Shown in pieces: positions 1,062 through 23,023 of a stretch of DNA of 25,180 nucleotides (its first letter is position 1; every line of letters begins with the position of its first letter). The stretch comes from Verrucomicrobiia bacterium (GTDB lineage: Bacteria; Verrucomicrobiota; Verrucomicrobiia; Methylacidiphilales; CALFVM01). The stretch spans positions 1 to 25,180 of the forward strand of contig JBDNCR010000001.1 of the NCBI GenBank assembly GCA_046719555.1, in the 5' to 3' direction. Below the pieces are notes generated by a model, which was not told where the DNA came from, did no database searches, and worked only from the letters and a program-made list of their open reading frames with translations. The translations under genes and the position numbers were made by a program.

Positions 1062-1850
1062 ATGAATCCAACGACATTGCCTTTGGAGGATACGTTCTCC
1101 GACATTTTGGGTAAGGCGGCCCGGGCTCAGGGGGTGGAGGAGGGAGCGCTGGGTCGGTTGGCCTTGGGCGAGTGGGACCCGGCTTTGGCCGAGACGGTGT
1201 GCCGACGCTTGGGGTTATCGTTTCCCGCTCTGGCGGCGATTGCGGAAGGCCGCTGGCGGCCGACCTCCCCTGCCCTGCCCGACGGGCTGGCGGGTTTCAC
1301 CACACCGTTCGGGGACATGACGGTGAATGCTTTCCTGGTTTGGGATCGGGCAACGGGCGCGGCCGCGGTGTTTGACACCGGCGGGGATGCTTCGGCGCTG
1401 TTGGCCGAGGTGACGCGGTTGAAGGTCCGTGTGAAGGTTTTGTTCCTGACCCACACGCATGGAGATCATGTGTTGGAGGTGGATCGGGTGGCGGAAACGA
1501 CCGGATGCCAGGTCCTGGCTCCGGAGGGTGAACCGTTGGCGGGTGCGGAGATGGTCCGAAGCGGTGAGACGGTGGCGGTCGGGGGCCTTCAGGTGGAGGC
1601 GCGCCCGACGCCGGGACATTCGCCCGGCGGAACGACCTATTTGGTGCATGGGTTGCGGGCGCCGGTGGCGGTGGTGGGGGACGCGATTTTTGCCGGGTCG
1701 GTCGGGGGAATCCGGGGCGATTATGCGGCGGCCTTGGAGGCCATCCGTCGGGAGATTCTTTCCCGTCAGGACAACACCTTGTTGTGCCCAGGACATGGTC
1801 CCCTAACGACGGTGGGCCAGGAACGGGCGCACAATCCTTTCTTCGCATGA
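1062..1850 (+). CDS. MBL-fold metallo-hydrolase (glyoxalase II/YcbL-like) with ~65 aa N-terminal helical extension
   Basis: THTHGDH (HxHxDH), TPGHS, VGDAIF and CPGHG metal-ligand motifs, plus the C-terminal ERAHNPF typical of GloB-like proteins. GAAGGAG lies upstream at 1041-1047. Confidence 0.9.
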   Translation: MNPTTLPLEDTFSDILGKAARAQGVEEGALGRLALGEWDPALAETVCRRLGLSFPALAAIAEGRWRPTSPALPDGLAGFTTPFGDMTVNAFLVWDRATGAAAVFDTGGDASALLAEVTRLKVRVKVLFLTHTHGDHVLEVDRVAETTGCQVLAPEGEPLAGAEMVRSGETVAVGGLQVEARPTPGHSPGGTTYLVHGLRAPVAVVGDAIFAGSVGGIRGDYAAALEAIRREILSRQDNTLLCPGHGPLTTVGQERAHNPFFA

Positions 1851-2764
1851 AACCGGGGCCGTTGCGGATTGGGGTGGTCGGGGTGGGACGGATGGGGGCG
1901 AATATGGCCCGGCGGTTGAAGGATCGGGGTCACTTGGTGACCGCCGTTTTTGATGTGCGGTCGGAGGCGGCCCAGGAGTTGGCCAGGGAGTTGGGGGCGG
2001 AGGCTCCCGACCGGTTGGCCGGGGTTACGACGGCTGCGGAGCTGATCTTCACGGTGGTTTCGGATGATGCAGCGATGCGAACGATCTTTGCTTCGGAGGG
2101 GGATTCGTTGCGGGTTGGAGCGGAGGGACGTATTTTCATCAATTGCGCGACGGTTTCGCCGGGGGTGCATCGGGAGGTGGAGGCTCAGGCCCGGGCGGTG
2201 GGGGCCCGGACGTTGGAGGCGTGCATGGCGTCCAGCATTACCCAGGCGCGGGACGGGACGCTCTATCTGATGTGTGGTGGGGATCGAGCCGTGTTTGAGG
2301 AGGTCAAGCCGGTGTTGGAGGACTTGGCGGTGAGCGTGCGCTGGGTGGGAGAAACAGGGCGGGCGGCGCAGGTCAAGGCGCTGGTCAACATGGTGATGAA
2401 TATCAACACGGCCGGTTTGGCTGAGGGTCTGGGCCTGGCTGAGGCGTTGGGGCTCGATCTGACCATGGTCAGAGAAGTGTTTTCGCAAACCGGGGCAGCG
2501 TCCCGGGTGTTGGAGACCGATGGGGCCGATATGCAGAACCGGGACCACGCCTGCTTTTTCTCTGCGGCTCATGCGGCCAAGGATTCGGGCATTGCGCTCG
2601 AGTTGGCGCGGGAAGTTGGCTTGGATTTGCCGCTGGCCCGGGCGACGCTGGAGCAGTTCCGCGAGATGGTGGCGCGGGGTCTGGGCGAGTTGGATAAATC
2701 GGGCGTGGCCGAGTTGACGTTCCGGGGTCGAGGTGCGGCAAGCGGAGGATCCGGGCCTCGGTGA
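1847..2764 (+). CDS. NAD(P)-dependent oxidoreductase, 3-hydroxyisobutyrate/beta-hydroxyacid dehydrogenase family (305 aa)
   Basis: IGVVGVGRMGANMA Rossmann motif, FINCATVSP, catalytic-Lys region QVKALVNM, and AAKDSGIA. The start is placed at ATG 1847 because it overlaps the MBL stop (ATGA); the ORF track's 1784 start is an upstream extension. Confidence 0.9.
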   Translation: MKPGPLRIGVVGVGRMGANMARRLKDRGHLVTAVFDVRSEAAQELARELGAEAPDRLAGVTTAAELIFTVVSDDAAMRTIFASEGDSLRVGAEGRIFINCATVSPGVHREVEAQARAVGARTLEACMASSITQARDGTLYLMCGGDRAVFEEVKPVLEDLAVSVRWVGETGRAAQVKALVNMVMNINTAGLAEGLGLAEALGLDLTMVREVFSQTGAASRVLETDGADMQNRDHACFFSAAHAAKDSGIALELAREVGLDLPLARATLEQFREMVARGLGELDKSGVAELTFRGRGAASGGSGPR

Positions 2765-2765
2765 T

Positions 2766-3827
2766 TTAGGGCGCGGCGGGTTGCTGCTGGGTGACGCAGT
2801 GGAGGGCGCCCAACCCGGCGGCGACGTGCGTGCATTCGATGCCGATGACTTGGCGATCAGGGAAGCAGCCGCGGAGGATGTCGAGGGCGAGTTGGTCTTG
2901 GGGACAGGAATAGATGGGGACCAGGACGGCGGCGTTGCCGATGTAAAAGTTCGCGTAGCTGGCGGGGGAACGGCCGAAGGGGCCTTCTTTGCGCGCGGGC
3001 ATGGGCAATTCGATAATCTCAAAAGGATCGCCCTGAAGGTTACGTGCTTGGCGGAGGGTATCGAGGTTGCGTTGGAGCGGTTCGTGATTGGGATCGTCCG
3101 GGTTGGGTTCGACGGCGGTGACGATGGTGTTGAGGCCGACAAATCGGGAGATGTCGTCCACGTGCCCGTCGGTGTCGTCCCCTTCGATGCCGTCGTCGAG
3201 CCAGATGATGTCCGAGACGCCGAGGTAGGTTTTGAGGCGAGCCTCAATTTCAGCCTGGGAAAGGTGGGGGTTGCGGTTGGGGTTGAGGAGGCATTGGCGG
3301 GTGGTGAGCAGGGAGCCAGCGCCATTGACGTCGATCGAGCCGCCCTCGAGGACGAGGTCGTGGGCAAGGACCGGGCAGCCGAGCATGGCGGCCAGGCGGC
3401 GGGGGATGATGTCGTCATCGTCCCAGGGGCCATATTTTTTTCCCCAGGAGTTGAAGACGAAGTCGTTGGCGACCAATCGGGGTTGGCGGGTGTCGCGGGC
3501 GACCAGGAAGATGGGGCCGGAGTCGCGCATCCAGGCGTCGTTGTTGGGGATGACGTGAACCGCGACGCGTTCGGGGACAGCGGCGGAGGCACGGAGCCGT
3601 TGACGGATTTCGTCGGCATCGCGGGGGCTATTGGCCAGGAAGTGGACAGTTTCGCCGGGGCTGAGGAGTTCAGCCATGCGGATCCAAACGGCTTGGACTT
3701 CGGGGAGGGATTCGGGCCAGGTCTCCGCGTTGGAGGGCCAGGCGAGCCAGGTGGCGTCGTGGGGCTCCCACTCGGCCGGCATGCGATAGCCGGAGAAGTC
3801 GAACTGGGCAGGGTCAAGGGCGGTCAT
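2766..3827 (-). CDS. aguA: Agmatine deiminase (peptidyl-arginine deiminase family)
   Basis: RMPAEWEPHDATWLAWP, DAWMRDSGP, LEGGSIDVNG, DTDGHVDD (catalytic His), ASYANFY and GALHCVTQQQP (catalytic Cys). Coupled to aguB by an ATGA overlap. Confidence 0.92.
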   Translation of the reverse strand: MTALDPAQFDFSGYRMPAEWEPHDATWLAWPSNAETWPESLPEVQAVWIRMAELLSPGETVHFLANSPRDADEIRQRLRASAAVPERVAVHVIPNNDAWMRDSGPIFLVARDTRQPRLVANDFVFNSWGKKYGPWDDDDIIPRRLAAMLGCPVLAHDLVLEGGSIDVNGAGSLLTTRQCLLNPNRNPHLSQAEIEARLKTYLGVSDIIWLDDGIEGDDTDGHVDDISRFVGLNTIVTAVEPNPDDPNHEPLQRNLDTLRQARNLQGDPFEIIELPMPARKEGPFGRSPASYANFYIGNAAVLVPIYSCPQDQLALDILRGCFPDRQVIGIECTHVAAGLGALHCVTQQQPAAP

Positions 3828-4702
3828 GCGTCGAGGTAGCGGGAGGTGATGGGTCCGTAGGCGTCGATGCGCCGGTCTCGGAGGAAGGGCCAGTGTCGGC
3901 GGGTGCGATCGACTTCAGCCAGGGGACAGTCAACGAGGAAGGTTTCCTCCCGGTCGTGGGGGGCGAGGTGGAGGAGTTCGCCGAACGGGTCGGAGACGAA
4001 ACTGCCGCCCCAGAAGTTGAGGCTGCCTTCAGGACCAACCCGGTTGACCGAGGCGACAAAGACCCCGTTGGCGATGGCGTGGGCGCGTTGGATGGTTTGC
4101 CAGGCGTTGTATTGGGCTTGGCGGATGGCGGGGTCGGTCTCGGCCTGAGCCCAGCCGATGGCGGTGGGGTAGAAAAGGATTTGGGCGCCGGAGAGGGCCG
4201 TGAGTCGGGCCGCCTCGGGATACCATTGGTCCCAGCAGACGAGGACACCGATTTTGCCGAAGCGGGTGGTGAAGGTTTTGAAGCCGAGGTCGCCCGGGGT
4301 GAAGTAGAATTTTTCGTAGAAAGCGGGGTCGTCCGGGATGTGCATCTTGCGATAGATGCCGAGGAGGGAGCCATCGGCATCGAGCACGGCGGCGGTGTTG
4401 TGATAGAGGCCCGGGGCGCGACGTTCAAAGAGGCTGGCAACGATGACGATGCCGCAATCTTGGGCGACGGAAGCAAGGGTTTCGGTGCTGGGGCCGGGGA
4501 TCGGCTCGGCCAGGTCGAAGGTGTCCACGTCTTCGGATTGGCAGAAGTAGAGGCTGCGGAAGAGCTCTTGGAGGCAGACGATCTGAGCGCCGCGGGCGGC
4601 GGCGTCGCGGATTCGGTCCACGGCCTTGGCGAGGTTGTCGGCAGGGGCGGCCGAGCAGGACATTTGGACAAGGCCAAGGCGGACGGTGGGAGAATCAGGC
4701 AT
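3824..4702 (-). CDS. aguB: N-carbamoylputrescine amidase (carbon-nitrogen hydrolase/nitrilase family), 292 aa
   Basis: Glu-Lys-Cys triad motifs CLQELF, YRKMHIPDDP and VCWDQWYPE, plus YPTAIGW and QRAHAIANG. Adjacent to aguA. Start is placed at MPDSPTVRLGLVQM (4702). Confidence 0.9.
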   Translation of the reverse strand: MPDSPTVRLGLVQMSCSAAPADNLAKAVDRIRDAAARGAQIVCLQELFRSLYFCQSEDVDTFDLAEPIPGPSTETLASVAQDCGIVIVASLFERRAPGLYHNTAAVLDADGSLLGIYRKMHIPDDPAFYEKFYFTPGDLGFKTFTTRFGKIGVLVCWDQWYPEAARLTALSGAQILFYPTAIGWAQAETDPAIRQAQYNAWQTIQRAHAIANGVFVASVNRVGPEGSLNFWGGSFVSDPFGELLHLAPHDREETFLVDCPLAEVDRTRRHWPFLRDRRIDAYGPITSRYLDA

Positions 4703-4750
4703 GGTGGGTTCCGGGTTGGAGGGCTCCGTTTTTAGGCCGCCGAGCGCCGG

Positions 4751-4779
4751 TTGCACAAGAGGGAACGTCGCGATAGGCT
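4751..4779 (+). promoter_or_regulatory. Candidate sigma70 promoter TTGCAC-N17-TAGGCT
   Basis: -35-like TTGCAC at 4751-4756, 17-nt spacer, -10-like TAGGCT (TAnnnT) at 4774-4779. The predicted +1 falls at about the ATG at 4787. Confidence 0.45.
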
Positions 4780-4786
4780 CCGCGCC

Positions 4787-5842
4787 ATGGAATCGTTACG
4801 GGACGATGATTTGGATTGGCCGTATGCGCGGGCGCGGTTGTGGACGGGAATTGTATCGATCGGGTTTAATTTGGGGTTGGTCTGGGCGTTGTGGTGGTGG
4901 GTGGGGGGGCAGGCGTGGGCCTCGACGGTTCCGACGCCGCTGACGGCGGTGGTGATCATGGCGGGGGTCTTTATTGGCATCGCGCTGGTGAACCTGCCCC
5001 TGGATTGGGTGACGGGCTATTGGGTTGAACGTCATTATGGGCGGGGCACCAGGAAGATGGGAGCGTGGCTGGGGAATTGGGTGAGCGGGATGAGCGGGTT
5101 GCTGCTGATCCAGGTTTTGGGAGGGATGTTGTTCGGGGCCTGGCTGTTTAATTATCCGTTTGCCGGCGCGGTGTTGGTGCTGTTGCCGGGGATTTATGTG
5201 GGGTTGAAGATCTGGCAGTTTCATTGGATTCCGGCCCGGTTGAAGCGTCCGGCCGAGTGGAAGCCGGGTTATGCGGAGGGGGTGCGAGCGGAATTGAAGC
5301 GGATGGGGGGCAGTTGGCCGGAGGATTTGTATTTGTATCGGGCAGAAGACCCGACGTTGGTGAATGGGGGGCGGGTTGGGATGGGAACCCACACACGGTT
5401 GATGGTGAGTGATGCATGTCAAGAGCACTTAACCCCAAGGGAGCTGGCCCTTCTGATCCACCGGGAGGAGGGTCTGGATCGGGCGAACAGTGTGGGGCGC
5501 AACTTGGATCTGAGCATGCTTTGGGTGTTGGCTGGGATTCTTGGGTTGATCGCTTGGGTGGGGAGCTGGGGTTGGGTTGGGTGGAGCACCTGGTTTTTTG
5601 CGCTGGCTTGGATGACGACGTGGCATTGGCTGGGGTTGTTTGTTTTGCCGTGGTTGGCGCGGCGAGAGGTGTTGTTTGGGGACCGGTGGCTGGCGCGGAA
5701 TGGATCGTCGAAGGAGGAGGTCCGGGCGTTGGTGACAAAGTTGCAGGCGTTGAACCGGACCGATCGTGAATTACCTCCGGTGACCGAGGCGGTGTTTCAT
5801 CCGATTCCGAGTTTACAGACCCGATTAAGGAACCTCACATGA
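4787..5842 (+). CDS. Ste24/M48-like integral membrane protein with degenerate zinc site (probable pseudo-peptidase), 351 aa
   Basis: Multiple TM segments. Ste24-like blocks NLPLDWVTGYWVERHYG, LYLYRAEDPTLVNGGRVGMGTHTRLMVSD, HLTPRELALLIHREEGL (in place of L.PEE..AVLAHELGH), ARREVLFGDRW (in place of SR..E..AD.F) and HPIPSLQTRLRNL. Confidence 0.75.
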   Translation: MESLRDDDLDWPYARARLWTGIVSIGFNLGLVWALWWWVGGQAWASTVPTPLTAVVIMAGVFIGIALVNLPLDWVTGYWVERHYGRGTRKMGAWLGNWVSGMSGLLLIQVLGGMLFGAWLFNYPFAGAVLVLLPGIYVGLKIWQFHWIPARLKRPAEWKPGYAEGVRAELKRMGGSWPEDLYLYRAEDPTLVNGGRVGMGTHTRLMVSDACQEHLTPRELALLIHREEGLDRANSVGRNLDLSMLWVLAGILGLIAWVGSWGWVGWSTWFFALAWMTTWHWLGLFVLPWLARREVLFGDRWLARNGSSKEEVRALVTKLQALNRTDRELPPVTEAVFHPIPSLQTRLRNLT

Positions 5843-5972
5843 ATGTCATTCCGCGAATTACCTTTATTTTGAGTGGGCTGGTGTTGAACATGATCCAGCG
5901 ATCCCTTCACTGCCATGCGGGCAAGCCACAGAGCTGGTTTTTGCCGCCGAACTGGAGTTAAGTGGAGTTTAC

Positions 5973-6638
5973 ATGGAGGCGCCGGTGATTTCGTGTCCGC
6001 GTTGTCCGGCCCTCCCGGCAGGACTGGCTGAGGCGGCCCGGCTGCTGGCGGGCCGGTCGTCGTGTCGGTTTGGTCAGCCTTGGGCCGAGGCAGTGGAGGG
6101 GCGGTTCCGTCCAGGATCGGTGGCGTTGGCGTGGGATGGGGATCAGTTGGGGGTGTGGGCCGATTTGGACGATGACGATGTGTTCAACGAGGGTTCCGAT
6201 TCGACTCAACCGTTGTGGGCCTTGGGTGATGTGTTTGAGATGTTTCTGCGTCCGTTGCCTGGGGAACGGTATGTGGAACTTCATGTGACGCCGGAGAACG
6301 TGCAGTTGCGGCTGGCTTTTCCGTCCGAGTTGTTTTTCTGGCGGGAGGCGATGTTTTATGGGCGCAAGCCTTGGGTATGGAACCATGCTTTGGGCGAAGA
6401 GGCGTTCGGGTCGGAGGCGAGCCGACGGGACGGGGGCTGGCAGGTGTGGGCGCGGATTCCGTGGGCGACGTTGACCGGCGGAACGGTTCCGGGGGTGGGC
6501 GAGGTCTGGTCAGGGTGTTTCTGTCGCTACGATGCGACGCGGGGGGAAACCGAGCCGGTGCTGTCGACGACCGGGGCGCATCGGCGGAGGATGTTTCATG
6601 ATCAGCGGGGATGGAACCGGATTGAGTTTGAGGGCTGA
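5973..6638 (+). CDS. Carbohydrate-binding family 9-like (CBM9/DOMON-like) domain protein
   Basis: WDGDQLGVWADLDD, LWALGDVFEMFLRP, YVELHVTPEN, WQVWARIPW and W..CFCRYD resemble the CBM9-like beta-sandwich pattern. SD GGAG lies just upstream of the ATG. No signal peptide. Confidence 0.65.
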   Translation: MEAPVISCPRCPALPAGLAEAARLLAGRSSCRFGQPWAEAVEGRFRPGSVALAWDGDQLGVWADLDDDDVFNEGSDSTQPLWALGDVFEMFLRPLPGERYVELHVTPENVQLRLAFPSELFFWREAMFYGRKPWVWNHALGEEAFGSEASRRDGGWQVWARIPWATLTGGTVPGVGEVWSGCFCRYDATRGETEPVLSTTGAHRRRMFHDQRGWNRIEFEG

Positions 6639-6682
6639 ATTTGGGGCTTGATTGGCGGGGTGGGGAGGAGGACGATTCCGGA

Positions 6683-8734
<2,052 letters not shown>

Positions 8735-8899: not shown

Positions 8900-9175
8900 A
8901 TGAAAAAAATTCTTCTGGCGTTTGTTCTGTGCTTTTCCCCCAGCCTTTGGGCCGATGTGTATTTCGGGCCTGCATCGTCTTCCGGCACCTTTCGCGGTGA
9001 GATTACGGCGATTGAACCTGGGCGGGAGTCGATTACGGTTCGCTCGGCAGAGAACACGGTGAAGATGTTTCACGTTCCGGCGAATCGGATTGGTCGATAT
9101 CAGACGGGGCAGGTGGTGACGGTTTCCTACGAGGAGGCTTACGCCTGGCCTTTGCGGACGCGTTCGATCCGCTGA
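8900..9175 (+). CDS. Small secreted protein, probable OB-fold (DUF1344/CusF-like pattern)
   Basis: Sec signal [18 protein letters not shown]|D. The mature part [17 protein letters not shown]...F.V....[14 protein letters not shown] follows the G.I..ID.....ITL....L..GxxVxVxY OB-fold pattern. Family assignment is by eye only. Confidence 0.65.
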
Positions 9176-11373
9176 GGGTGGGGTTGGAGGCGGACCGCCC
9201 CGCATTTGTAGGCGGGTTGACGTGAATGGGGATCGACGATCCATGGGGTCAGCTGGTTGGCCTGCTGATCGTGCATGGGGATAAAGACGTGCCCCGGCGG
9301 GACGGTGGGGGTGACGCCGGCCCAGCCGGTGATGGAGCCCCGTGGCGAGTGGACGGTGAGGGGGTCACCGTCGGCGATGTGGGCAGCCTTGGCGTCGGTG
9401 GGATGGATCTCGATCCGAAGGCGGGAGGGATGAAGTTTGCGGAGGATGGCGGATTTCTCGGTTCGGCTCCCGGTGTGCCACTGGGAGGAGCTGCCGCGTC
9501 CGGTGAGCAGCCAGAGGGGGAAATCGGGGCTGGGCGTTTCTGGAGCAGGTGCGGGCGGGTCGAAGATCAGGCGGGCTTGGCCATCGGGGTGATAGAAGCG
9601 ACGATCTTGGAACAGGCGACGTTCTTGTTTGGAGGAATCGGGGAGGGGTGTGGCCGGGTAGGGCCATTGAATGCCGCCAAGCTCTTCGAGGTGGGCATAG
9701 TCGCGGATGCCGGTGATGTCGCAGGGTTGCCCGGCACTGCATTGTTTGAGGAGTTGGAACACCGCTTCGGGGGTGGTCCAACGGGTGAACAGGTGTCCGC
9801 AGCCCCAGGCATCGGCGAGGGCTCGGAAGATACGGAAATCGGAGAGGGCCTGGCCGGGAGGGCGGCGGACGGGACGGATGACGCCGATGCGGCGTTCGGA
9901 GTTGATGAAGGTTCCTTCTTTTTCGCCCCAACCGGCGGCGGGCAGGTAGAGATCGGCGCCTTGCGCAGTTTCCGTGGTGGGATACATGTCCTGAACCACG
10001 AGAAAGTCGAGTTGCTCCCGCAGACGGTGGAAGCGGTTCTGGTGAATCCAAGAGTGGGCGGGATTGGTCGCGATGATCCACAGGGCGCGGATGCGGCCTG
10101 CTTCAACGGCTTCGAGGATTTGATCGTAGGCCAGGCTGTTCTGATCGGGGATGCGGGCGGGGTCGATGTCGAGGATGCGGGCGATTTTGTCGCGGTGGGC
10201 GGGGTTGGTGAAGTCGTGGCCGCCGAGGAGGTTGGTGGTGTTGGAGAAAAGGCGGGAGCCCATGGCATTGCACTGGCCGGTGATGGAGTTGGCACCGGTG
10301 CCGGGCTGGCCGATGTTGCCGGTGATGAGGGCGAGGTTGATGATGGCCTGGGCGGTTCGGGTGGCTTGGTGGCTTTGATTGACGCCCATGGTCCACCAGA
10401 AGGAAATTCGTTGGCCGGAGGTGATGAGGGCGGCGAAGCGTTCGTAGGCGGCGGGGTCCAGCCCGGTTTCGGCCAGGACCCGATCGGGAGTGAAGTCGCG
10501 GGTGAAGGTTTCATAGGCGTCCAGGCCGTGGGCGTAGGTGGCGACGGTGGTCCGGTTGACCGCGCCACGGGCAAACGCTTCGCGAGCTAGCCCATAGAAG
10601 AGAGTGAGATCGGATTTCGGCCGTGCCGGGAGGTGAAGAGTCGAGGCGCAGGCGGTTTCGGTGCGTCGGGGATCGATGACGACAATTTCCGGGTTGCGGC
10701 GGTTCCGCATGACCCGCTGCCACATGATGGGATGGGCGATGCAGGGGTTGGCGCCGATGAAGACGAGGACATCGCTCTGTTCGAAATCAGCGTAGGTGAA
10801 CGGGGGTGCGTCGAAGCCGAAGGATTGTTTGTAAGCCGTAACGGCGGTGGCCATGCATTGGCGGGTGTTGCCATCGCCGTGCAGCATGCCCATGCCGAAT
10901 TTGGCTAAAGCGCCAAGGAAGGCCATCTCTTCGCAAACGATTTGCCCGGTGGAAAGAAAAGCGGCCGCATGGGGACCGTGGCGCGATTGAACGGAGCGGA
11001 TTCTGGAGGAGAATTCCTTGAGGGCTTCCGGCCAGGAAAGAGGACGGGTTATTTTGCCCCGCCGAAGCAACGGAGTGGTGCCGCGATCGGGGGCCTCGAG
11101 TGGGGCGAGGGCTTCCCAACCTTTGGGACAGGCCATGCCGAGGTTGACTGGATAGTGTGCGTCCGGGGTGAGGTTGACGGCACGGCCTTCGCGGAGATGG
11201 AGGGTGAGATTGCAGCCGGTGGAGCAGAAGCCACAGACCGAGCCGGTGACCGCGTCGGGCTGGTTGCGGAAGGGAACTTGTCCGAGTCCGAAACGGCCTG
11301 GCGTGCGCACCAACTCGGCCGTGAGCACGCCGTCCCATTCGCGCAGGGTCGGTTGGGGAAGTTTGAATTTCAT
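9139..11373 (-). CDS. nasA: Assimilatory-type nitrate reductase catalytic subunit (Mo-bisPGD, one [4Fe-4S]), 744 aa
   Basis: CGFCSTGC...CPKG N-terminal Fe-S motif, [11 protein letters not shown] (Mo-ligand Cys region of NasA/NarB/NapA), [29 protein letters not shown] and QWHTGSRT. No twin-arginine signal. Start at 11373 is supported by an ATGA overlap with the upstream gene; 11625 is an extension in the ORF track. Confidence 0.92.
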
Positions 11374-12860
11374 GATCCGGGCATTTTGGTGGCGACTCCG
11401 CTTTTGAAGTAGAGCCAGCGTTCGATCAGTTCGCCGAGAAGGGCCAGCAGCAGGGCGGCAGGGAGGGAGAGGAAAAAGAGAGGAATCGCCATCGCACCGA
11501 TCAGGAAACGGGCCAGGGTCCAACGGCGCAGAGGGCCGCGCAGCAGCAGCGCGGAGCGTTGTCGGTCGGTGAGGGTTGGAGACTGGGCATCTGAATTTTG
11601 AAGGGAAATCATGCGGGCTTCCCATGCGAGTTTCAAAATCAGAAGGGCGGGCAGCGCGGCGGGCAGGGCGAAGAGGGCGGTGGTCCCGAAGAAGCGGAGG
11701 AAGGTGCGTGAGCCGCGCCAGACCTGGCGGTGGGTGTCGTGATAGACCATGGCCGAGCAGAAGACACCGAGGATCCCGGTGACGATGGCGGCGGTGAGGG
11801 CGGCAGGAACGACCCAGGGTGGGGTCGGTGCGGGAGAGAAAGGCAAGGCAACTTCAAGGCCAAGGGTGGCGGTGGAGGCTGCGAGAAAGGTGCCAAGGGC
11901 GATGATTTCACGGCTGAGCCAGGAGGTGCGCCAGCCGAGAAAGGCGCGCCAGGCTTTGAGGGGCTGGCCGAGGTGAAGGATGCTGGCGGCGAGGCCGAGA
12001 TGGATGAGGACAACGGCGGCGATGAGCCAGGCAAGGGGTGAAGCTTGGAAGGTGGCGGCGATGAGAAGGCCGAGCCCGGTTTGGGTGAAAACGAGCATGA
12101 TGACGAGCGGCCCGTGACCTGGCTGAACGGTTGGTGCGGCGTGGTCCGCGGCACGGAGGGATTCGGCTAAAGGTTTGGTTGAAACGTAACGGGTGGTGGG
12201 GATGGTGATGCGGGGATCGGGGGTGTGGGGCAGAAAGACGCCTTCGGCGGCGCGGGCGCGGGCCGTGGAGGTGCGGATGACGCGGATGGCGATGGCCGAG
12301 GTCGGGCAGGCCTGAACGCAGGCCGGGGCTTCCCCTGCGGCAAGGCGTCCGTGGCACATGTCGCATTTGCGCACGATGCCGAGGCGGTCGGAATACTTCG
12401 GCACCTCGTAGGGACATTTCATGATGCAGTATTGGCAGCCGATGCACTGGTCATCGAGGTGGCGAACCACCCCGGTGACGGAATCTTTTTCGTAGGCGAG
12501 GACGGGGCAGCCGTGGGCGCAGCCAGGGTCGGCGCAGTGGTGGCAGGCCGTGGTGACGGTCTGGACGACAGCCTGGCCGTTGGCATGGCCTTGGAGGCGG
12601 CCGACTTCGCGCCAGCTTTCCTGGTCATCGAGGCCGTTGAGACTGTGACAGGCGGCGACGCAGGCTTTGCAGCCGGTGCATTTGTCGAGATCGACTTCGA
12701 AGGCGTATTGCTCGCCGGGACCTGGTGCGGAAAGAGGAATGAGATCGCGGTAGGTGCCCGCGAGGGCGTGGTCGCGGCGGTCGTGTTCGCGGGCGAAGCG
12801 AGCAACGGGGGTAAGGGTGCGCTGCTCGGAGAGAAGTTCGTCGATGAGGGTGGGACTCAT
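11370..12860 (-). CDS. Fused DmsB-like 4x[4Fe-4S] ferredoxin plus DmsC/YnfH (NrfD superfamily) membrane anchor, 496 aa
   Basis: Sixteen Cys in four groups ([44 protein letters not shown]), followed by ~7-8 TM segments with DmsC hallmarks [34 protein letters not shown] and [14 protein letters not shown] overlaps at both ends. Confidence 0.9.
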
Positions 12861-14548
12861 CCGAGCATTTCCTGGAGTTGGCCCACTTCGTGACGGGTGG
12901 TGAATTGTTGAAAAGACTCGCCGTCCTGCCGTTTGGCCAGATAGAGGCGCAGGAGTTTTTCGATGTGGCGTTTGGCCTGCTCGAAGGGCATGGCCTGGAA
13001 GAGTTGTCTTCCAATCGCACGGTTCTGGCCGAAGCCGCCCCCAACGCAAACGTGGTAGGCCTCCTGGCCATCACGGGTTTTGGCCCCGAGCAATCCGATG
13101 TCGCCCATGTAATGTTGGGCACAGGAGTGGGGGCAGCCGGTGAAGTGGATGTTGACGGGCTGGTCGAGGGAAAGACGCTGGTCGAGGTAACGAGCGAGTT
13201 CCAAGGCGTGGCCCTTGGTGTCGGTCGCGGCGTATTTGCAGTAACGGTTGCCGGTGCAGGCGATGATGCCGCTGGTCAGGTTGGATTGCCGCCAGTCCAA
13301 TCCGACTTTGATCAGCGCTTTTTTTACGGTTTCGACAAAGCCGTTGGGGATATTGGGAATGACGACGTTCTGCCAGACAGTCAGGCGCAGGTCACCGGAA
13401 CCGTAGTTTTCCGCCAGCTCGGCCAGACGATGAAGTTGCTTGGGGGTGATCTGGCCGATGGGCAACGCCACGCCGATGAAAGTCAGTCCTTCCTGCTTCT
13501 GTCGGTGAACGCCGATGTGGCTGTGGGGCAGCTCCTGGCAGGGGTAGGCGAGGGGAGCTTCTTCGAGCGCGGAGCGGGTCAACGGATGGCCGAGCAGTTT
13601 TTCGGTTTCCTCCCGATAACGTTCGAGGCTCCATTGTTCGAGCAGGTGTTTGAGACGGGCTTTTTTGCGGTCGCCGCGGTTGCCGTTGCGGATGAAGACA
13701 CGGATCAGGGCCACGATCACCCGGACAATTTCTTCCGGGGGCACGAGGACGCCGAGATCGCGGGCGAAGGCCTTGTGACCGGTGGCACCGCCGAGGGCGA
13801 TGCGGAAGCGGACTTCGGAGCCGACGCGGACGGCCTTGACGCCGATGTCATTGGTGTCCTCGACCGAGCCGATGAGTCCGCCGCCGTCAAAGGCGATGTT
13901 GAACTTGCGCGGCAGGTCGTAGAATTCGCGATGGGAGAGGATGAACTGGGAAAGTTTCTGCACGTAGGGCGTGCAGTCGATCAACTCGAGGGGATCGACT
14001 CCGGCGGTCGGATTGGCGGTGATGTTGCGGATGTTGTCGGCACCCGCCCCTTGGGTGTGGAGGCCGATGGCTTGCACTCGGCGCAGAAACTCCGGCGTAT
14101 CACGGGGGGCGATCAGACGGATTTGCAGGTTGGCGCGGGTGGTGACTTGGATGTAACCGGTGGTGAGCTGTGCGGCAAGGTCGGCGAGTTCATGGGCTTG
14201 GTAGGATTTGAGTTGTCCGCCGGGGATGCGGAGGCGGGCCATGAAGGCGTCTTTGACCGGGGTGAGATAAAACAAGCCGTGCCACTTGAAGCGGAAGATC
14301 TCCTCTTTATCGGGCGCTTGGTCGGCCCGCGCATTTTCTTCAATCCGATAATAGGAATCCAGCGGGTGCTCTTCTTTTTTGATCCGTTCTTCGGCAATGA
14401 GGATGGGTGGTTCCGCGGCATCGGGGGCCGGGGCCAAATCGCCGAAGCGGATGCCTTGGTCCTCAAGGCCTTTGAAGAAGCCCTGCAAATAGGACCTCTG
14501 GTCGGGCGCGAGATCTTTGCCGAGGATGGAAGTGGGAATGGGGGTCAT
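12857..14548 (-). CDS. nirA: Siroheme/[4Fe-4S] nitrite reductase, NirA family
   Basis: FKWHGLF, FMARLRIPGG, TTRANLQIR, GADNIRN, LPRKFNIA (nitrite-type Asn rather than the SiR RKFK), and siroheme/Fe-S ligands ACTGNRYC and TGCPHSCAQH. Confidence 0.92.
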   Translation of the reverse strand: MTPIPTSILGKDLAPDQRSYLQGFFKGLEDQGIRFGDLAPAPDAAEPPILIAEERIKKEEHPLDSYYRIEENARADQAPDKEEIFRFKWHGLFYLTPVKDAFMARLRIPGGQLKSYQAHELADLAAQLTTGYIQVTTRANLQIRLIAPRDTPEFLRRVQAIGLHTQGAGADNIRNITANPTAGVDPLELIDCTPYVQKLSQFILSHREFYDLPRKFNIAFDGGGLIGSVEDTNDIGVKAVRVGSEVRFRIALGGATGHKAFARDLGVLVPPEEIVRVIVALIRVFIRNGNRGDRKKARLKHLLEQWSLERYREETEKLLGHPLTRSALEEAPLAYPCQELPHSHIGVHRQKQEGLTFIGVALPIGQITPKQLHRLAELAENYGSGDLRLTVWQNVVIPNIPNGFVETVKKALIKVGLDWRQSNLTSGIIACTGNRYCKYAATDTKGHALELARYLDQRLSLDQPVNIHFTGCPHSCAQHYMGDIGLLGAKTRDGQEAYHVCVGGGFGQNRAIGRQLFQAMPFEQAKRHIEKLLRLYLAKRQDGESFQQFTTRHEVGQLQEMLG

Positions 14549-14568
14549 GGGGAGGAGTGTTTTGACGG

Positions 14569-16215
14569 TTAATACACGTCGCGCTGATAACGCTTTTGCG
14601 CTTGGAGAGTGTGGAGGAAGTCGGAGGCTTGGTCTGGGGAGAGACCGCCGACCTGGACGGCAATTTGGTGGAGCGCGGCTTCGACATCCTTGGCCATCCG
14701 CTTGGCATCTCCGCAGACGTAGAAATGGCCGCCCTCTTGGAGCCAGGACCAGAGTTCGGCGGCCTGTTCGAGCATCCGGTTTTGCACGTAGATTTTCTCC
14801 TGCTGATCGCGAGAAAAGGCGGTGTCTAGGCGGGTGAGAAGACCGTCTTGCTGCATGGCTTGGAGTTCGTCGCGGTAGAGGAAGTCGCAGGCGGCTTTTT
14901 GGTCGCCAAAGAAGAGCCAGTTCTTTCCTGGGGCGCCGATGGCGCGCCGTTCTTGGAGGAAGGCACGGAAAGGGGCGATGCCGGTGCCGGGGCCGACCAT
15001 GATCATGGGTCGGGAGGGGTCGGTGGGAGGTTTGAAGTTGGGCGAGCGGTGGACAAAGATGGGGAGGGGAGTGTCGGGACCGACCCGTTCAGCGAGGAAG
15101 GTGGAGCAGACGCCGGAGCAGAGGCGGCCGTTGAGTTGGTAGCGGACGACACCGACGGTGAGGTGAACTTCGCCGGGATGGGCTTTGGGGCTGGAGGAGA
15201 TGGAGTAGAGGCGGGGCTGGAGTTTTTTAAGGGGGGCAACCAGATCGGTCGCTGCGATGTGACCTGTGGGAAGCTCGGCCCGAAAGTGGCCGAGGTCGAG
15301 GTGCTCGGTGAGGGCTTTGCGCAAGGGGAAGTCCCCGATTTTGGGGAGGGTCACGGCTTCTTCACCATCGAGCCCGGCGGCATCCAGAATGTCCTGAACC
15401 AAGGCCGGATCATTCTGCGGAAGCACGCCGAGGGCATCGCCGACCTCGTAGGTGAGCCCGGAATCGCCGAGGAGGATTTCAAGGTGGCGGGTGTCTTTGG
15501 TAGAGCCGGGTCCGTTGAGGCGACGGTTGGTTTTGAGTCGGGCGAGGTAGGGATGAGTTTTGGAGAAGGAGGCCGGGGGTGGAGAGGCGGTGGGCGTGAG
15601 TTGGGGTGTTTGGGCGCCGACTCCGAGGGTCTGGATGAAGCCACGGAACCATTCGGCGGCGGGTGTTTCGTAGTCCACATCGCAATCGGTGCGGGGATAG
15701 ATCCGTTTGGCGCCGAGTTCTTCGAGCCTTTGGTCGAGGCGCTTACCGGCTTCGCAGAAGTGGACGTAGTTGGTGTCGCCGAGGGCCAGAACGGAATATT
15801 CGAGATGGGCGAGGGAGGGGGCGGAACCGTTCCGGATGAAATTCCAGAAGGCCTGAGCGTTGTCGGGCATGTCCCCATCGCCGTAGGTGCTGGTGATGAT
15901 GGCTAGCCGGGATTCTTTGGAGAAGTCGATCTTGGTGAATTCGTCCAGGCTGTGAACGCGGGAGTCGAAGCCGACGGCGCGGGCTTGTTGTGAGAATTTG
16001 CGGGCGAGTTGTTCGGAGGAGCCGGTTTGGGAGCCGAAAAGGAACAGCAGCGGCCCGTGGACCGGCGGCGGGGGGGAGTCCGCCGCCGACCGTGCGGTGC
16101 CGATGTGCCCTGCGGCCAGCAGGCCCGCCAAGTAGCCGTTGATCCAGGCCCGTTGTTCGGGGGAAAAGGGTGCGGTTTCGGGAATGAACGCAACGTCGGT
16201 TGGCGGTGGGGTCAT
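14569..16215 (-). CDS. cysJ: CysJ-like NADPH diflavin (FMN/FAD) reductase; probable electron donor to NirA, 548 aa
   Basis: Flavodoxin motifs FGSQTGSSE, TSTYGDGDMPDNA and LGDTNYVHFC; FAD/NADPH motifs RLYSISSS, GVCSTFL, MVGPGTGIAPFRAF, TAFSRDQ, YVCGDAKRMAKDV and RYQRDVY. The symbol denotes the family, not a proven sulfite role. A GTG at 16221 is an alternative start. Confidence 0.92.
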   Translation of the reverse strand: MTPPPTDVAFIPETAPFSPEQRAWINGYLAGLLAAGHIGTARSAADSPPPPVHGPLLFLFGSQTGSSEQLARKFSQQARAVGFDSRVHSLDEFTKIDFSKESRLAIITSTYGDGDMPDNAQAFWNFIRNGSAPSLAHLEYSVLALGDTNYVHFCEAGKRLDQRLEELGAKRIYPRTDCDVDYETPAAEWFRGFIQTLGVGAQTPQLTPTASPPPASFSKTHPYLARLKTNRRLNGPGSTKDTRHLEILLGDSGLTYEVGDALGVLPQNDPALVQDILDAAGLDGEEAVTLPKIGDFPLRKALTEHLDLGHFRAELPTGHIAATDLVAPLKKLQPRLYSISSSPKAHPGEVHLTVGVVRYQLNGRLCSGVCSTFLAERVGPDTPLPIFVHRSPNFKPPTDPSRPMIMVGPGTGIAPFRAFLQERRAIGAPGKNWLFFGDQKAACDFLYRDELQAMQQDGLLTRLDTAFSRDQQEKIYVQNRMLEQAAELWSWLQEGGHFYVCGDAKRMAKDVEAALHQIAVQVGGLSPDQASDFLHTLQAQKRYQRDVY

Positions 16216-16221
16216 GGGCAC

Positions 16222-17703
16222 CTAGAAGCTGATGAGGGCTTGGACGTAGATGAAATCGGCGTCGGCGGTTTGGCCGGTTGGGGCGGTGTCGGAGATGTAA
16301 CCGCCGGTGAAGAAGTGGGCGTAACCGGCTTCAAGCTTGAGCCATTGATTGAGGTCATACCAGAGGGTGAGGTCGATCTCGGACCCGACAAAGCCGGAGG
16401 GATTGCGGTTGAGGGCGTTGGCGTAGCGGGGGGCTCCGCCGACGGGTTGTTGGGCGGCGAAGCGCCAGACGTCCCGGGTTTCGGCCAACCAGAAAAGGTG
16501 GTAGTCGAGTTTGATCCGGAGTTTCGGCGTTGGTTGGACGGTGAGGCCGATGGCCGGGTTGTGCAGGTTTTGCCAGGAGAACCGATCCATGTAGCCGTAG
16601 AATTTGTGGTTGGTGGGGAAGAGATTTTGAAAGGTGTGGGAGATACCGTCGTTGGGGTCGCTGTCGCCTGAGCCGTAGTTGTACTCGAGGTGGAGCCGAG
16701 GTTTCCACGGGTGGGTGAAGGTGTAACCGCCCTCGATGTGGAGAGCCCCAGCGAGAAGGTCTTGCCGGTTGATGTTGATGGGATTTCCGCCAACGAGGGG
16801 GCCGAAGCCTTGGGGGTTGGAGAGGCCACCGATTTGGAAAGCAAATTCGGCGTTGGCGTCCCAGGGTCCGAAGGCCCCCTTTTTTGATTTCAGGCGGGTG
16901 CCGAGGGTGGCGTAGTCTCCGGCGGGGGCGGTGTTGCCATCGACCCGTTCGTCCCGTCCGGTGAAGGTGGTGGAGGGGGTGACTTGGGATTTGCTGCGCC
17001 AGAGCAGGAAGAGGTCGGAATCGAAGGAGGGGATGAGGTCGGTGGTGGCGTAGAGGCCGGTGAAGAGGTCGGTGGTGTCGGGATTGTTGAATCCTTCGGT
17101 TCGGTGGAGGACGACGTAGCCGGCGAAGGCATCGAGGGTGAAGCCGCCGTTTTGGTAGCTCAGGCGGAGGGCGTCGAAGGTTCGGGCATTGTTGTCCCAC
17201 TCAAAGGCACCGATCAGCCGCTCGTCACCGTAGGAGAGGATTTGCCGCCCGATTTTGAATCTGAGGGGCTGCCCCCAGAGGTTATCGAGTTGGAGGTAGC
17301 CCTGACGCAGGGCGATGGGGCTATCGTTGGAGATGAATTCGCGGGTGGCATCGTTCTGGGGGTTGTCAAAGAAGGTGCGGGAGTCTTGGAGTTGGGCGTA
17401 GGCGGTGAAGTTCTCAACGGGCTGGAACTTGAGTCCGAGGCGGAGCCGTTGGAGGAGCGCCTGGGAATCGCGGACGTCGGTGCTGTCGGAAAAATCGATC
17501 CAGTTGCTTCGCCACTCAAATCGTTCGCGGAACTGGAAGTCGAGGGTGAACTGATGATGGTAAAAGGTGATGGGTTGGCCGGGTTGCCAAGGGTCTTGGC
17601 GGAGTTTGGCTTGGGCCGAGGTTGGGCGGCCGGTGAGGGCGGGGGATCCGGCTTGGACGATGGTGGGGAGGAGGAGGGCGAGGAGGTAGAGATGAGGTTT
17701 CAT
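16222..17703 (-). CDS. Alginate export (AlgE-like) family outer-membrane beta-barrel; putative nitrate/nitrite porin
   Basis: Sec signal [88 protein letters not shown], and a C-terminal beta-signal YVQALISF. Embedded in the nitrate operon. Confidence 0.85.
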
Positions 17704-18602
17704 GGTGAAGCGGTTGAGGATGAGGTGGCGGCGGCCCGGGGTGGGGGAGCGGGGGCATGGAAGGGGATGATCTTGGGTCCGGGGTTGGAGGGCCGGTTGA
17801 CCAGGGGCCGGTCATGGCCGCGGAGGTGGGAAAGGTGATGGAGGAAGTGGAGGAGATGTTCGCGGTAAGTGTAGAAGCGGGGATCTTCGAGGAGGGCGTG
17901 TCGGTCGCGAGGTCGGGGGAAGTCGATGGGGAGGATGTCGCCGACTTCGGCCTCGGGTCCGTTGGTCATCATGACGACGCGATCGGAGAGATAGACGGCT
18001 TCATCGACGTCATGGGTCACCATGAGGGTGGTGATTTGGAAGCGGTTCCAGACTTCAAGGAGAACTTGTTGGAGTTCGTATTTGGTGAGTTTGTCGAGCA
18101 TGCCGAACGGCTCGTCGAGGAGTAGGATTTTGGGGGAAAGGGCAAAGGCGCGGGCGATGCCAACCCGCTGGCGCATGCCCTGGGAGAGTTCGGCCGGGCG
18201 TTGGTGCATGGCGTCGGCGAGGCCAACCACGGTGAGGTAGTATTCCGCGATTTGTCGGCGCTCGGCTTTGGGGGCGGTGAAGAAGACCTGATCCACGGCG
18301 AGCCTGACGTTTTGGTAGGCGGTCATCCAGGGGAGGAGGCAAGGGGCCTGGAAGACCACGCCGCGGTCTGGCCCGGGCTCATCCAGTTGGCGACCGTGCA
18401 GGAAGATGCCTCCGGAGGAGGCTTGTTGGAGCCCGGCGACCATGGAGAGCACGGTCGATTTGCCACAGCCGGAGTGGCCGATAAGGCAGACGAACTCGCC
18501 AGGGGCGATGTCGAGGTCAAAGTCTTTGACCACGGTGCAGGGGCCACTTGGGGTGGGGTAGACTTTATGGAGTCGAGAGAGCTGAAGGACGGGACGGGTC
18601 AT
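17700..18602 (-). CDS. nrtD: Nitrate/nitrite ABC transporter ATP-binding protein (NrtD-like), 300 aa
   Basis: Walker [15 protein letters not shown]-loop, LSQGMRQR signature, [11 protein letters not shown] and VTHDVDEA. Start at 18602 is supported by an ATGA overlap with the upstream ATPase stop. Confidence 0.9.
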
Positions 18603-19522
18603 GGCGCAGTTTGAATCGGTTCCTGGCGGCGTTCCGCCCGGCGACGTGGACCGCGTCGGGGGAGCCACCGGTCAACGAGGGTGAGGTGAGAAATGTCTTC
18701 GGGTTCGATGGCGGGGAGGGTCAGTTTTTGGTGAATGATGGAACGGCCTTGGTCCCGCTGGCGGAGGAGATAATCGAGGATGTGAAGGCGCATGGAGCGG
18801 AAGCGGGGGTCGTGGTTGAGCGCGGTCCGGTCGCGGGGCCGGTCGAGGTCCACCCGGACTTCAGGACCGAGGGAGGCGGCTGGTCCGAGAGAGAGGGGGA
18901 TGACGCGGTCGGCGAGCAGGAGGGCCTCATCCACGTCGTTGGTGATGAGGAGGACGGTTTTTTGTTCTTCTTGCCAGATGCGGCAGAGTTCGTCCTGGAG
19001 GGTGGACCGGGTCAGGGCGTCGAGCGCGCCGAGCGGTTCGTCCAAGAGCAGGACCTCTGGATTCATGGCCAGGCCGCGGGCCAGAGCGACCCGCTGGCGC
19101 ATGCCGCCGGAGAGTTGGCTGGGGCGCCGATCGCGGGCGTGGGCTAGCCCAACCATGCGGATGTATCGATCGATCCGATCGGCCCGGGCGGCGGCGGGCT
19201 CGGTTTGAAAGATTTGATCGACGGCCAGGGCAATGTTGCCGTGGACGGTCAGCCAAGGCAGGAGGGAGTAGTTCTGAAAGACGACGGCTCGTTCAGGGGA
19301 TGGGCCTTGGATCGGACGCCCTCGAAAGAGAACCTGGCCGTCGGTGGGTGTTTCGAGTCCTGCGAGAAGATTGATGAGGGTGGTTTTTCCGGAGCCGGAA
19401 TAGCCGACGATGGCGACGAACTCACCGGTCTGAACGGCAAGGTTGATGCCTCGCAACACTTCGTTGGCGGCGGAGCCTGAACCGAAAGTTTTTCCAGCCT
19501 GGCGAAATTCGAGAAGGGCCAT
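18599..19522 (-). CDS. nrtC: Nitrate/nitrite ABC transporter ATP-binding protein (NrtC-like ATPase domain only)
   Basis: [44 protein letters not shown] and ITNDVDEA (H-loop His replaced by Asn). Lacks the cyanobacterial C-terminal NrtA-like domain. Confidence 0.88.
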
Positions 19523-19528
19523 ATCCGA

Positions 19529-20533
19529 TTACCGTTGGTTGGGTTCGAAGGTGACGAGGGTTTGGAGGGCCAGCATCAGGCGGTCCAAAGCAAAGCCGAT
19601 AACGCCAATGGTGAAGATGGCCACCATGATCAGGGACAGACTCTGGGAGCTGCCGTTTTGGAACATGTCCCAGACGAATTTTCCGAGGCCAGGGTTCTGG
19701 GCCAGCATTTCGGCAGCGATGAGCACCATCCAGCCTACGCCGAGGGACAATCGGAGGCCGGTGAAGATGTAGGGCAGAGCGGCGGGCAGGACGATTTTGA
19801 AGATTTTGGCTGGCCAACTTAGGCGGAGCACGCGGGCGACGTTGAGGTAATCGGTGTCGATGGAGGCGACGCCAACGGCGGTGTTGATCAGGGTTGGCCA
19901 TAGGCAGCAGAGGGCCACGGTGATGGCGGAGGTGAGGAAGGCTTTGGTAAAAAGGGGATCGGGCGGGTTGTAAAGGGAGCCGACCAGGATCATGACGATC
20001 GGTAACCAGGCCAGGGGTGAGACGGGGCGGAAGATTTGGATGAACGGGTTTAAAGCGGTGTTCACGGCGCGGCTTAGTCCGCAGAGGATCCCGAGGGGCA
20101 CGGCGATACAGGAGGCGATGAGGAATCCGGTGAAAACGGTCCTCAGACTGGTGCCGATTTGGTCGAAGTAGGTGGGTCGTCCAGAGTAACGTCGTTCGGG
20201 AAAGGTTTGACCGGGATTCTCCGCAAGAAAGCGTTCCCGGCGTTCGGCTTGACGTTGGTAGAATTGGGCTTCCCGTTCTCGTTCGGCCCGGTGATCCTGG
20301 TAAAGACCGGCGGCGGCTTTCCAGACGTCGGAGGGTCCTGGCATGGTGGCGAAACCGACGTCGAGTCCGGCGAGAAAGTGGGACCAAAGTCCGAGGAAGA
20401 TGGCGAGGGCCAGCAGCGGTAAGCCGATCTGGGACAGAAGCGTTCTGGCGAAGTCGGCCGGAGGTCGGACGGTGAGGAGGCGATCGAGACCGTTGGGGAG
20501 GAGGCCGAGGTTGAAGGTGGGTTTGCGGTTCAT
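19529..20533 (-). CDS. nrtB: Nitrate/nitrite ABC transporter permease
   Basis: [42 protein letters not shown]-like [30 protein letters not shown] and [13 protein letters not shown]. Confidence 0.92.
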
Positions 20534-20539
20534 GGCGGG

Positions 20540-22950: not shown

Positions 22951-22962
22951 GGCATGGAGGGG

Positions 22963-22977
22963 GCACCTGCCGTGCCA
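22963..22977 (-). promoter_or_regulatory. Candidate sigma54 (-24/-12) promoter of the nitrate operon
   Basis: The minus strand reads TGGCACGGCAGGTGC, i.e. GG-N10-GC, close to the consensus TGGCACG-N4-TTGC. Predicted +1 is about 22951, next to the nasS-like ATG at 22950. Confidence 0.6.
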
Positions 22978-23023
22978 TGGGGGTGGTGGAGGAGGTATTG
23001 ATTGCTTGAAATGATTTCCGGTT

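Follow-up and report, generated by a model that had tools for sequence, protein, structure and literature searches.

Introduction

Assimilatory nitrate reductases are known to receive electrons from reduced nicotinamide adenine dinucleotide (phosphate), NAD(P)H, diaphorases, from ferredoxin or from flavodoxin, and the textbook enzymes are soluble. The stretch of DNA analysed here, referred to below as the window, comprises positions 1-25180 (forward strand) of contig JBDNCR010000001.1 of a Verrucomicrobiia bacterium (GCA_046719555.1; genome 74.5% complete) and was found to contain a nitrate-assimilation operon on its minus strand, extending from a NasS-like gene to nasA. The operon contained the genes for a NasS-like binding protein and a nitrate ATP-binding cassette (ABC) transporter, followed by those for an Alginate_exp barrel, a CysJ-like reductase, NirA, a fusion protein and NasA. 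The fusion gene (11370..12860, minus strand) encodes 496 amino acids, in which a four-cluster Fe-S domain is joined to a membrane domain of the DmsC/PsrC type. Together with NasA, the fusion probably forms an inward-facing menaquinol:nitrate oxidoreductase that serves assimilation, with the reduction of nitrite fed separately by NADPH.

The closest described systems belong to several groups. DmsABC of Escherichia coli contains a catalytic subunit with a molybdenum-bis(pyranopterin guanine dinucleotide) (Mo-bisPGD) centre and the cluster FS0, a four-cluster subunit with 16 Cys and a haem-free DmsC anchor, and these features were also found in the present module, with His65, Ser82 and Glu87 of DmsC kept. 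Unlike DmsABC, the module contained no twin-arginine translocation (Tat) signal and is predicted to face the cytoplasm with its anchor inverted; the Fe-S and anchor parts were present in one polypeptide, the catalytic subunit was Nas/Nap-like and the genes were part of an assimilatory operon. SoeABC of Allochromatium vinosum and Aquifex aeolicus is, by its description in a review of the NrfD family (PMC8076601), similar to the present module in its proposed inward-facing arrangement: its anchor would be inverted and its quinone site would lie close to the cytoplasmic (N) side. No other family member listed there is proposed to have this orientation, and SoeC and DmsC have a common His65/Ser82/Glu87 numbering in the same review. 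The electrons flow from sulfite to quinone in SoeABC, whereas a flow from quinol to nitrate is expected here; SoeB and SoeC are separate, and the catalytic subunit (SoeA-type, sulfite-oxidising) and the pathway are also different.

The assimilatory enzymes NasA, NasC and NarB resemble the catalytic subunit of the present module: they are cytoplasmic, contain Mo-bisPGD and an N-terminal [4Fe-4S] cluster, have Cys as the molybdenum ligand and are encoded with nitrate uptake and nitrite reductase genes. The conserved partner here was instead the membrane Fe-S/anchor fusion, and the equivalog cut-offs of those enzymes were not reached. The periplasmic nitrate reductases (NapA with NapC or NapGH) include the closest solved relative of the catalytic subunit, NapA of Desulfovibrio desulfuricans, and Nap is likewise fed by quinol without charge separation at the enzyme. 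NapA is periplasmic, Tat-exported and served by haem or NapGH quinol dehydrogenases, whereas the module described here is predicted to face the cytoplasm and to be wired by a DmsB-DmsC fusion.

A functional precedent for quinol-dependent nitrate reduction that serves assimilation as well as respiration was found in NarGHI of Mycobacterium tuberculosis, which, according to the passage of PMC7816997 that cites Malm et al. 2009, is a quinol-dependent membrane nitrate reductase with a cytoplasmic active site supplying nitrite for assimilation. It differs from the present module in the NarG lineage of its catalytic subunit and in its dihaem cytochrome b anchor; it was recruited from respiration and is not a dedicated component of an assimilation operon. 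NarGHI is also electrogenic.

The present module was classified as a complex iron-sulfur molybdoenzyme with a SoeABC-like orientation, a Nas/Nap-like catalytic subunit and fused beta and gamma subunits. No description of a Nas-linked DmsB-DmsC module was found in the full-text literature searches, and the review PMC8076601 lists no Nas-linked or fused member; PMC7327174, considered as a possible description, was found to be unrelated. The initial annotation had regarded a quinol:nitrate arrangement inside an assimilatory operon as a hybrid of respiratory architecture and assimilatory purpose. The four-cluster wire, the DmsC/NrfD-type anchor, the coupling to nasA and the retained His of that proposal held. 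An inward-facing complex of this family has a precedent in the orientation proposed for SoeABC, and quinol-dependent nitrate reduction for assimilation has one in the M. tuberculosis NarGHI.

Results

Structure of the fusion protein

The open reading frame of the fusion was found to start with the ATG at 12860 and to stop at 11370. The stop codon of nirA overlapped the start of the fusion in an ATGA at 12857-12860, and the stop codon of the fusion overlapped the start of nasA in a further ATGA at 11370-11373, which bore out the direct coupling to nasA asserted in the initial annotation. The protein contained an N-terminal extension, followed by the four-cluster Fe-S domain, a short linker and the membrane domain, and the Pfam families Fer4_11 and DmsC were matched. 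An AlphaFold2 model built with 39 homologues gave a mean predicted local distance difference test (pLDDT) of 84.6 and a predicted TM-score (pTM) of 0.84, and the membrane domain was mostly above 90 in pLDDT.

The N-terminal extension (residues 1-49; 12714..12860, minus strand) was conserved in the alignment of homologues. No Tat or general secretory (Sec) signal was found in the N-terminus of the fusion, the sequence of which contained no signal-like hydrophobic stretch. The extension is predicted to form a clasp on the N-terminus of NasA, with residues 4-36 in the predicted interface. It was followed by a DmsB/PsrB-like ferredoxin domain (residues 50-235; 12156..12713, minus strand) with 16 Cys for four [4Fe-4S] clusters, arranged in the groups 61/64/67/71, 106/109/114/118, 139/142/145/149 and 166/169/181/185, as expected of the four-cluster wire annotated earlier. 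The domain was 34% identical to E. coli DmsB (E 6e-32, BLASTP), and a score of 122.4 bits was obtained against the NCBIfam equivalog model DMSO_dmsB (TIGR02951), the cut-off of which, 214.1, was not reached; the domain thus appears to be a homologue and not an equivalog of DmsB. Structure comparison of the AlphaFold2 model gave fold matches of this domain to PsrB, FdnH and ArrB.

Membrane anchor and quinol-site residues

The membrane domain (residues 249-496; 11373..12116, minus strand) was found to have the DmsC/PsrC fold. The DmsC family PF04976 was matched with 46 bits against a gathering threshold of 22.3, with profile positions 9-162 covered, and the fusion was the only PF04976 match in its own genome. 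In the comparison with E. coli DmsC (E 2e-07, BLASTP) the segment SILHLGQP was aligned on SMLHLGSP, and the alignment extended from the first transmembrane helix (TM1) to the last helix, in which G-E-L-I-x-R-x-x-x-F of the fusion corresponded to Glu267, Arg271 and Tyr275 of DmsC. The modelled domain matched PsrC (2vpw_C) with a VIA Z of 18.6 (229 of 250 residues aligned); for ActC, a subunit of alternative complex III, Z was about 18. Hydropathy alone suggests six to seven helices, and the DmsC and PsrC alignments suggest the complete eight-helix fold.

The quinol-site residues of DmsC are Ser62, His65, Ser82 and Glu87; replacement of His65 stops quinol oxidation and Glu87 is important in quinol binding (PMC8076601). 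The codon of His296 was located at 11973..11975 (minus strand) and this residue was aligned on DmsC His65, followed by the presence of the segment S-W-L-S-R-E, residues Ser313-Glu318 (11907..11924, minus strand), in which Ser313 corresponds to Ser82 and Glu318 to Glu87 in the alignment. The DmsC/NrfD-type anchor, the retained His of the S.LHLG.P motif and the quinol role of that His in E. coli, all part of the initial annotation, were therefore confirmed by the family match, the DmsC alignment, the PsrC fold and the published data on DmsC. The domain is a haem-free anchor of the NrfD/PsrC/DmsC fold, with its predicted quinone site placed beside a Fe-S subunit. Searching with the membrane domain alone yielded, for the most part, pieces of the same fusions cut off at contig ends, and no relatives labelled as SoeC.

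At the extreme C-terminus a Met-Pro-Gly sequence (residues 493-496; window 11373-11384) was found to be nearly invariant, in 143, 147 and 142 of 149 homologues, respectively. With eight helices this end would be cytoplasmic, and it could be in contact with the Fe-S domain or NasA.

Conservation and distribution of the fusion

To examine conservation, 149 sequences, each representing a cluster at 50% identity and 43-59% identical to the query, were aligned. All 16 Cys were conserved in 149 of 149, as were His296, Ser313, Ser316, Arg317 and Glu318, whereas Tyr373, Trp381, Arg481 and Phe485 were nearly invariant. Since His296, Ser313 and Glu318 are invariant, a mere tether is not expected and quinone chemistry appears to be under selection.

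In a protein collection clustered at 90% identity, more than 7,900 of the 8,000 scored candidates matched the fusion, and 734 representatives of 50%-identity clusters matched at E <= 1e-30. The fusion architecture was present in at least 592 species genomes, mostly of Verrucomicrobiota, together with a few loci in records labelled Planctomycetes (L067, L075), and it is not a chance arrangement because of its presence in so many species genomes and cluster representatives. The Fe-S and anchor parts were contained in a single open reading frame here and in the top 120 homologues, so that the separate polypeptides typical of DmsABC and PsrABC were not found. Look-alike fusions of Fe-S and anchor parts were also found in several other phyla.

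One Opitutaceae locus (L088:7094-8957) was found to contain the Fe-S part in frame 2 and the anchor part in frame 3, with a gene call for the anchor only; the arrangement is either a frameshift or a genuine split into two subunits. Stand-alone DmsB-like clusters of Verrucomicrobiota in the ESM Atlas also suggest the existence of split forms.

The catalytic subunit NasA and its predicted complex with the fusion

NasA (9139..11373, minus strand; 744 amino acids) is a NasA-type Mo-bisPGD nitrate reductase and was found to contain the Pfam domains Molybdop_Fe4S4, Molybdopterin and Molydop_binding. An FS0 motif, C-x2-C-x3-C-x27-C-x-K, was present from residue 47, followed by the presence of the putative molybdenum ligand Cys173 and a Met, which were aligned with the Cys-Met of NapA. 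The monomeric NapA of D. desulfuricans was the best solved relative (E 6e-95). The best NCBIfam match was NasA, below the equivalog cut-off: 423.5 bits were obtained for NasA_Halo (cut-off 1000), 376.5 for NasC (cut-off 1100) and 413 for Fdh-alpha, all of them below their cut-offs. By these comparisons the protein would belong to a distinct clade of the Nas/Nap/Fdh group. The features of the assimilatory class, namely nitrate uptake and nitrite reductase genes alongside and a Cys ligand of the nitrate-reductase type, were all present, and the gene context was conserved in 80 loci.

The initial annotation had proposed modelling NasA with the fusion. NasA was modelled in complex with residues 1-250 of the fusion, containing the Fe-S domain, in three runs with three controls. 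The three runs gave an interaction prediction score from aligned errors (ipSAE) of 0.85, and the best control gave 0.00; in the calibration, 51 of 78 solved complexes and 2 of 108 mismatched pairs came up to the mark set for this score. The conserved N-terminal extensions of both proteins take part in the predicted interface, as do the surroundings of FS0 in NasA and of the first cluster in the fusion. The predicted complex is a likeness to the solved alpha-beta complexes, not a demonstration of binding.

Orientation in the membrane

No twin arginine was found in the first 60 residues of NasA, and together with the lack of a signal peptide in the fusion this places the Fe-S domain and NasA in the cytoplasm. 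The Tat export of the catalytic dimer that is common to most complex iron-sulfur molybdoenzymes is therefore not predicted here. The loops on the Fe-S side of the anchor contained on average 4.4, 3.4 and 4.9 Lys and Arg residues in the 149 family members, whereas the far-side loops contained 0.6 and 0.5. In E. coli DmsC the corresponding loops are periplasmic and contain 2, 0 and 0. From the lack of export signals and the Lys and Arg on the Fe-S side, the anchor is predicted to be inverted relative to DmsC and PsrC, that is, upside-down with its quinone site toward the cytoplasm. The peripheral subunits on the N side and the inverted anchor would correspond to the arrangement of SoeABC.

Association of the fusion with NasA and of the diflavin reductase with NirA

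The gene order was compared in 80 related loci and the gene content in an evenly drawn set of 300 high-quality genomes from the phylum. Both the fusion and NasA were found in 58 of the 80 loci, and in each of these NasA came after the fusion on the same strand. NirA and the CysJ-like gene preceded or followed this pair, in eight arrangements; NirA adjoined the fusion in 67 loci, and a CysJ-like gene was present in 58. Some loci consisted of the fusion and NasA alone, flanked by unrelated genes, by a nitrate transporter or by molybdenum-cofactor genes, with no NirA or CysJ-like gene nearby. In the loci with a separated NasA (Luteolibacter, Haloferula and Akkermansiaceae), a NasA with 60-62% identity was found elsewhere in all five of the genomes searched.

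Across the 300 genomes the fusion was present in 28, and NasA orthologues (at least 54% identity) were present in the same 28. NirA was present in 33 genomes, six of which contained neither the fusion nor this NasA among the matches found, and one genome with the fusion gave no NirA match. The CysJ-like gene was still located beside NirA in two of the six NirA-only genomes. The co-occurrence of the fusion with NasA and the persistence of the CysJ-like gene beside NirA indicate that the fusion goes with NasA and the diflavin reductase with NirA, and the CysJ-like reductase is probably the partner of NirA rather than of NasA.

Two Nas-type enzymes were found in one region of a distant member of the phylum (G076:C1:428001-456000; L089, L090). 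Between them, nitrate ABC transporter genes were present together with a NirB-like Pyr_redox_2/BFD protein without a sirohaem domain and a multihaem cytochrome c, and a nitrogenase-component-1-like gene was located downstream.

Discussion

Proposed path of electrons

NasA and the fusion, the products of two genes, would assemble at the cytoplasmic side of the inner membrane into a complex iron-sulfur molybdoenzyme with three modules. Menaquinol would be oxidised at the DmsC-type site (His296, Ser313 and Glu318) at the cytoplasmic ends of TM2-TM4, and two electrons would travel through the four [4Fe-4S] clusters of the fused ferredoxin domain to FS0 of NasA and then to the Mo-bisPGD centre with its Cys173 ligand, where nitrate would be reduced to nitrite in the cytoplasm. 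Nitrite would be reduced to ammonium by NirA with NADPH electrons delivered through the CysJ-like diflavin reductase. The pathway would thus be split by potential, with quinol used for the high-potential nitrate step and NADPH saved for the low-potential sirohaem step. The likely advantage is that nitrate would be reduced at the expense of quinol, whose formation by quinone-reducing dehydrogenases has already conserved energy. No charge would be separated at the nitrate step if, as proposed, protons are released and consumed on the same cytoplasmic side. We infer quinol as the donor, the direction of electron flow and the lack of charge separation from the features described above, and a function as a redox valve, raised in the initial annotation, may be added on the same basis. 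The standard potentials make the direction from menaquinol to nitrate favourable, with a drop of roughly 0.5 V. An MqnA/MqnD-family gene of the futalosine pathway was present in the genome.

Several points weigh against this reading. The case for quinol oxidation by the fusion consists of the conserved residues, and the number of helices in the C-terminal half of the anchor (residues 384-486) is uncertain, since hydropathy and fold alignment disagree there. A family search for MenA in the 74.5% complete genome gave no match. A complete NADPH diflavin reductase, the product of the gene two places upstream, could in principle supply the Fe-S wire. As NasA scored below every NCBIfam equivalog cut-off, the assignment of nitrate as its substrate depends on the active-site motif and the operon context, and the high score of the modelled complex may stem in part from the prediction method having learned the solved alpha-beta complexes of this enzyme family. 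In 16 of the 80 loci the fusion adjoined NirA and NasA was not found alongside in the locus. In G076 a NasA with 54% identity had no adjacent fusion, and the only fusion of that genome (38% identity) directly preceded a NasA paralogue with 39% identity.

Alternative explanations

Feeding of the Fe-S domain from the cytoplasm survives best among the alternatives, although it seems unlikely. The domain would then be a polyferredoxin relay that receives electrons from NADPH through the flavin mononucleotide (FMN) domain of the CysJ-like protein, from flavodoxin or from ferredoxin, and the anchor would tether NasA near the nitrate transporter or act as an overflow to the quinone pool. This is consistent with the presence of a CysJ-like gene in the operon and in 58 of the related loci, with a stand-alone flavodoxin-like gene located directly before the fusion in 14 loci, and with the presence of CysJ-like genes somewhere in five of the five tested genomes whose loci were flavodoxin-only or CysJ-less; flavodoxin is also a known donor to the Azotobacter Nas. 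The invariance of the three quinol-site residues, however, is not needed for a tether. The CysJ-like gene also follows NirA, staying beside it in genomes that gave no match to NasA or the fusion, whereas it is missing from the two-gene loci of fusion and NasA and its place relative to this pair varies.

A variant that shares the quinol route with the proposed menaquinol:nitrate oxidoreductase adds either proton movement, driven by the roughly 0.5 V drop, through conserved charged residues of the second helix bundle of the anchor (among them Glu477 and Arg481, corresponding to DmsC Glu267 and Arg271) or a role as a terminal nitrate reductase of anaerobic respiration in these bacteria. It is considered quite improbable. 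If it were true, the "assimilatory" nitrate reduction in much of the Planctomycetes-Verrucomicrobia-Chlamydiae (PVC) group would be energy-conserving and tied to the respiratory redox state.

It is very doubtful that the fusion is a shared membrane hub delivering quinol electrons to both NasA and NirA. The overlap of the nirA stop with the start of the fusion would agree with such a hub, as would the adjacency of NirA and the fusion in the 67 loci, including the 16 in which no NasA was found beside the fusion. The six genomes with NirA and without the fusion and this NasA, and the one genome with the fusion and without a NirA match, argue against it, and the potentials of the sirohaem and its cluster are far below that of the menaquinol couple.

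That the molybdoenzyme is not a nitrate reductase, being for example formate-dehydrogenase-like in a module that may donate electrons to quinone, is hardly credible: the Fdh-alpha score was close to that of NasA and some homologues were named "formate dehydrogenase iron-sulfur subunit" by the Joint Genome Institute (JGI), but the best solved relative is a nitrate reductase, the nitrate ABC transporter, the NasS-like sensor and NirA share the operon in a context conserved across the 80 loci, and Cys173 is followed by Met as in NapA where formate dehydrogenases have (Se)Cys-His, so that the formate dehydrogenase reading was rejected on the Cys-Met motif and the operon context.

Neighbouring genes and composition of the window

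The upstream neighbour of the fusion was a NirA-family sirohaem nitrite reductase (12857..14548, minus strand), which matched the NCBIfam model PRK09567 with 706 bits (cut-off 523) and the Pfam family NIR_SIR. It was preceded by the CysJ-like NADPH diflavin reductase (14569..16221, minus strand), which contained the Pfam domains Flavodoxin_1, FAD_binding_1 and NAD_binding_1 and matched PRK06214 with 493 bits (cut-off 432). A gene for an Alginate_exp-family outer-membrane barrel, identified by Pfam, was located at 16222-17703 on the minus strand, separating the genes of the nitrate ABC transporter from those of the reductases. The barrel was matched in 12 of the 80 related loci, and it may be a porin for nitrate or nitrite.

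In loci of Akkermansiaceae and Luteolibacter the place of the CysJ-like gene was found to be occupied by a flavodoxin-like gene of about 190-200 amino acids, in 14 loci in all (L009, at 6273-6893, L014, L022, L024, L031, L039, L044, L047, L051, L061, L068, L071, L073 and L081). This gene was always located between NirA and the fusion, and it matched the N-terminal peptide and the FMN (flavodoxin) domain of the CysJ-like protein only. In the Opitutaceae locus L088 (11296-15516), genes for glucose-6-phosphate dehydrogenase and 6-phosphogluconate dehydrogenase were found directly after nasA, and this pair would fit a dedicated source of NADPH for the CysJ-like/NirA step.

The plus-strand GC skew was extreme across the window (positions 1-25180), at about +0.27 to +0.28 whatever the orientation of the genes: a value of +0.274 was obtained for the region of plus-strand genes (1062-8734) and one of +0.282 for that of minus-strand genes (9139-23046). 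The third-codon-position skew on the coding strand was +0.37 in thiC and -0.57 in nasA. This pattern points to a very strong mutational bias specific to the strand.

Biological meaning

If the proposed menaquinol:nitrate oxidoreductase is real, a dedicated assimilatory nitrate reductase wired to the quinone pool would be a fourth way to power nitrate assimilation, and the NrfD-family anchor of the fusion would be the second, independent one found upside-down after SoeABC. The single-chain fusion of Fe-S and anchor parts could suit structural work. Matches to nasA in metagenomes would need careful reading, as the product may be assimilatory only or a possible electron sink. Assumptions about what nitrate assimilation costs abundant soil and aquatic bacteria in energy would have to be revised, and nitrogen assimilation in these organisms would be tied to the redox state of the respiratory chain.

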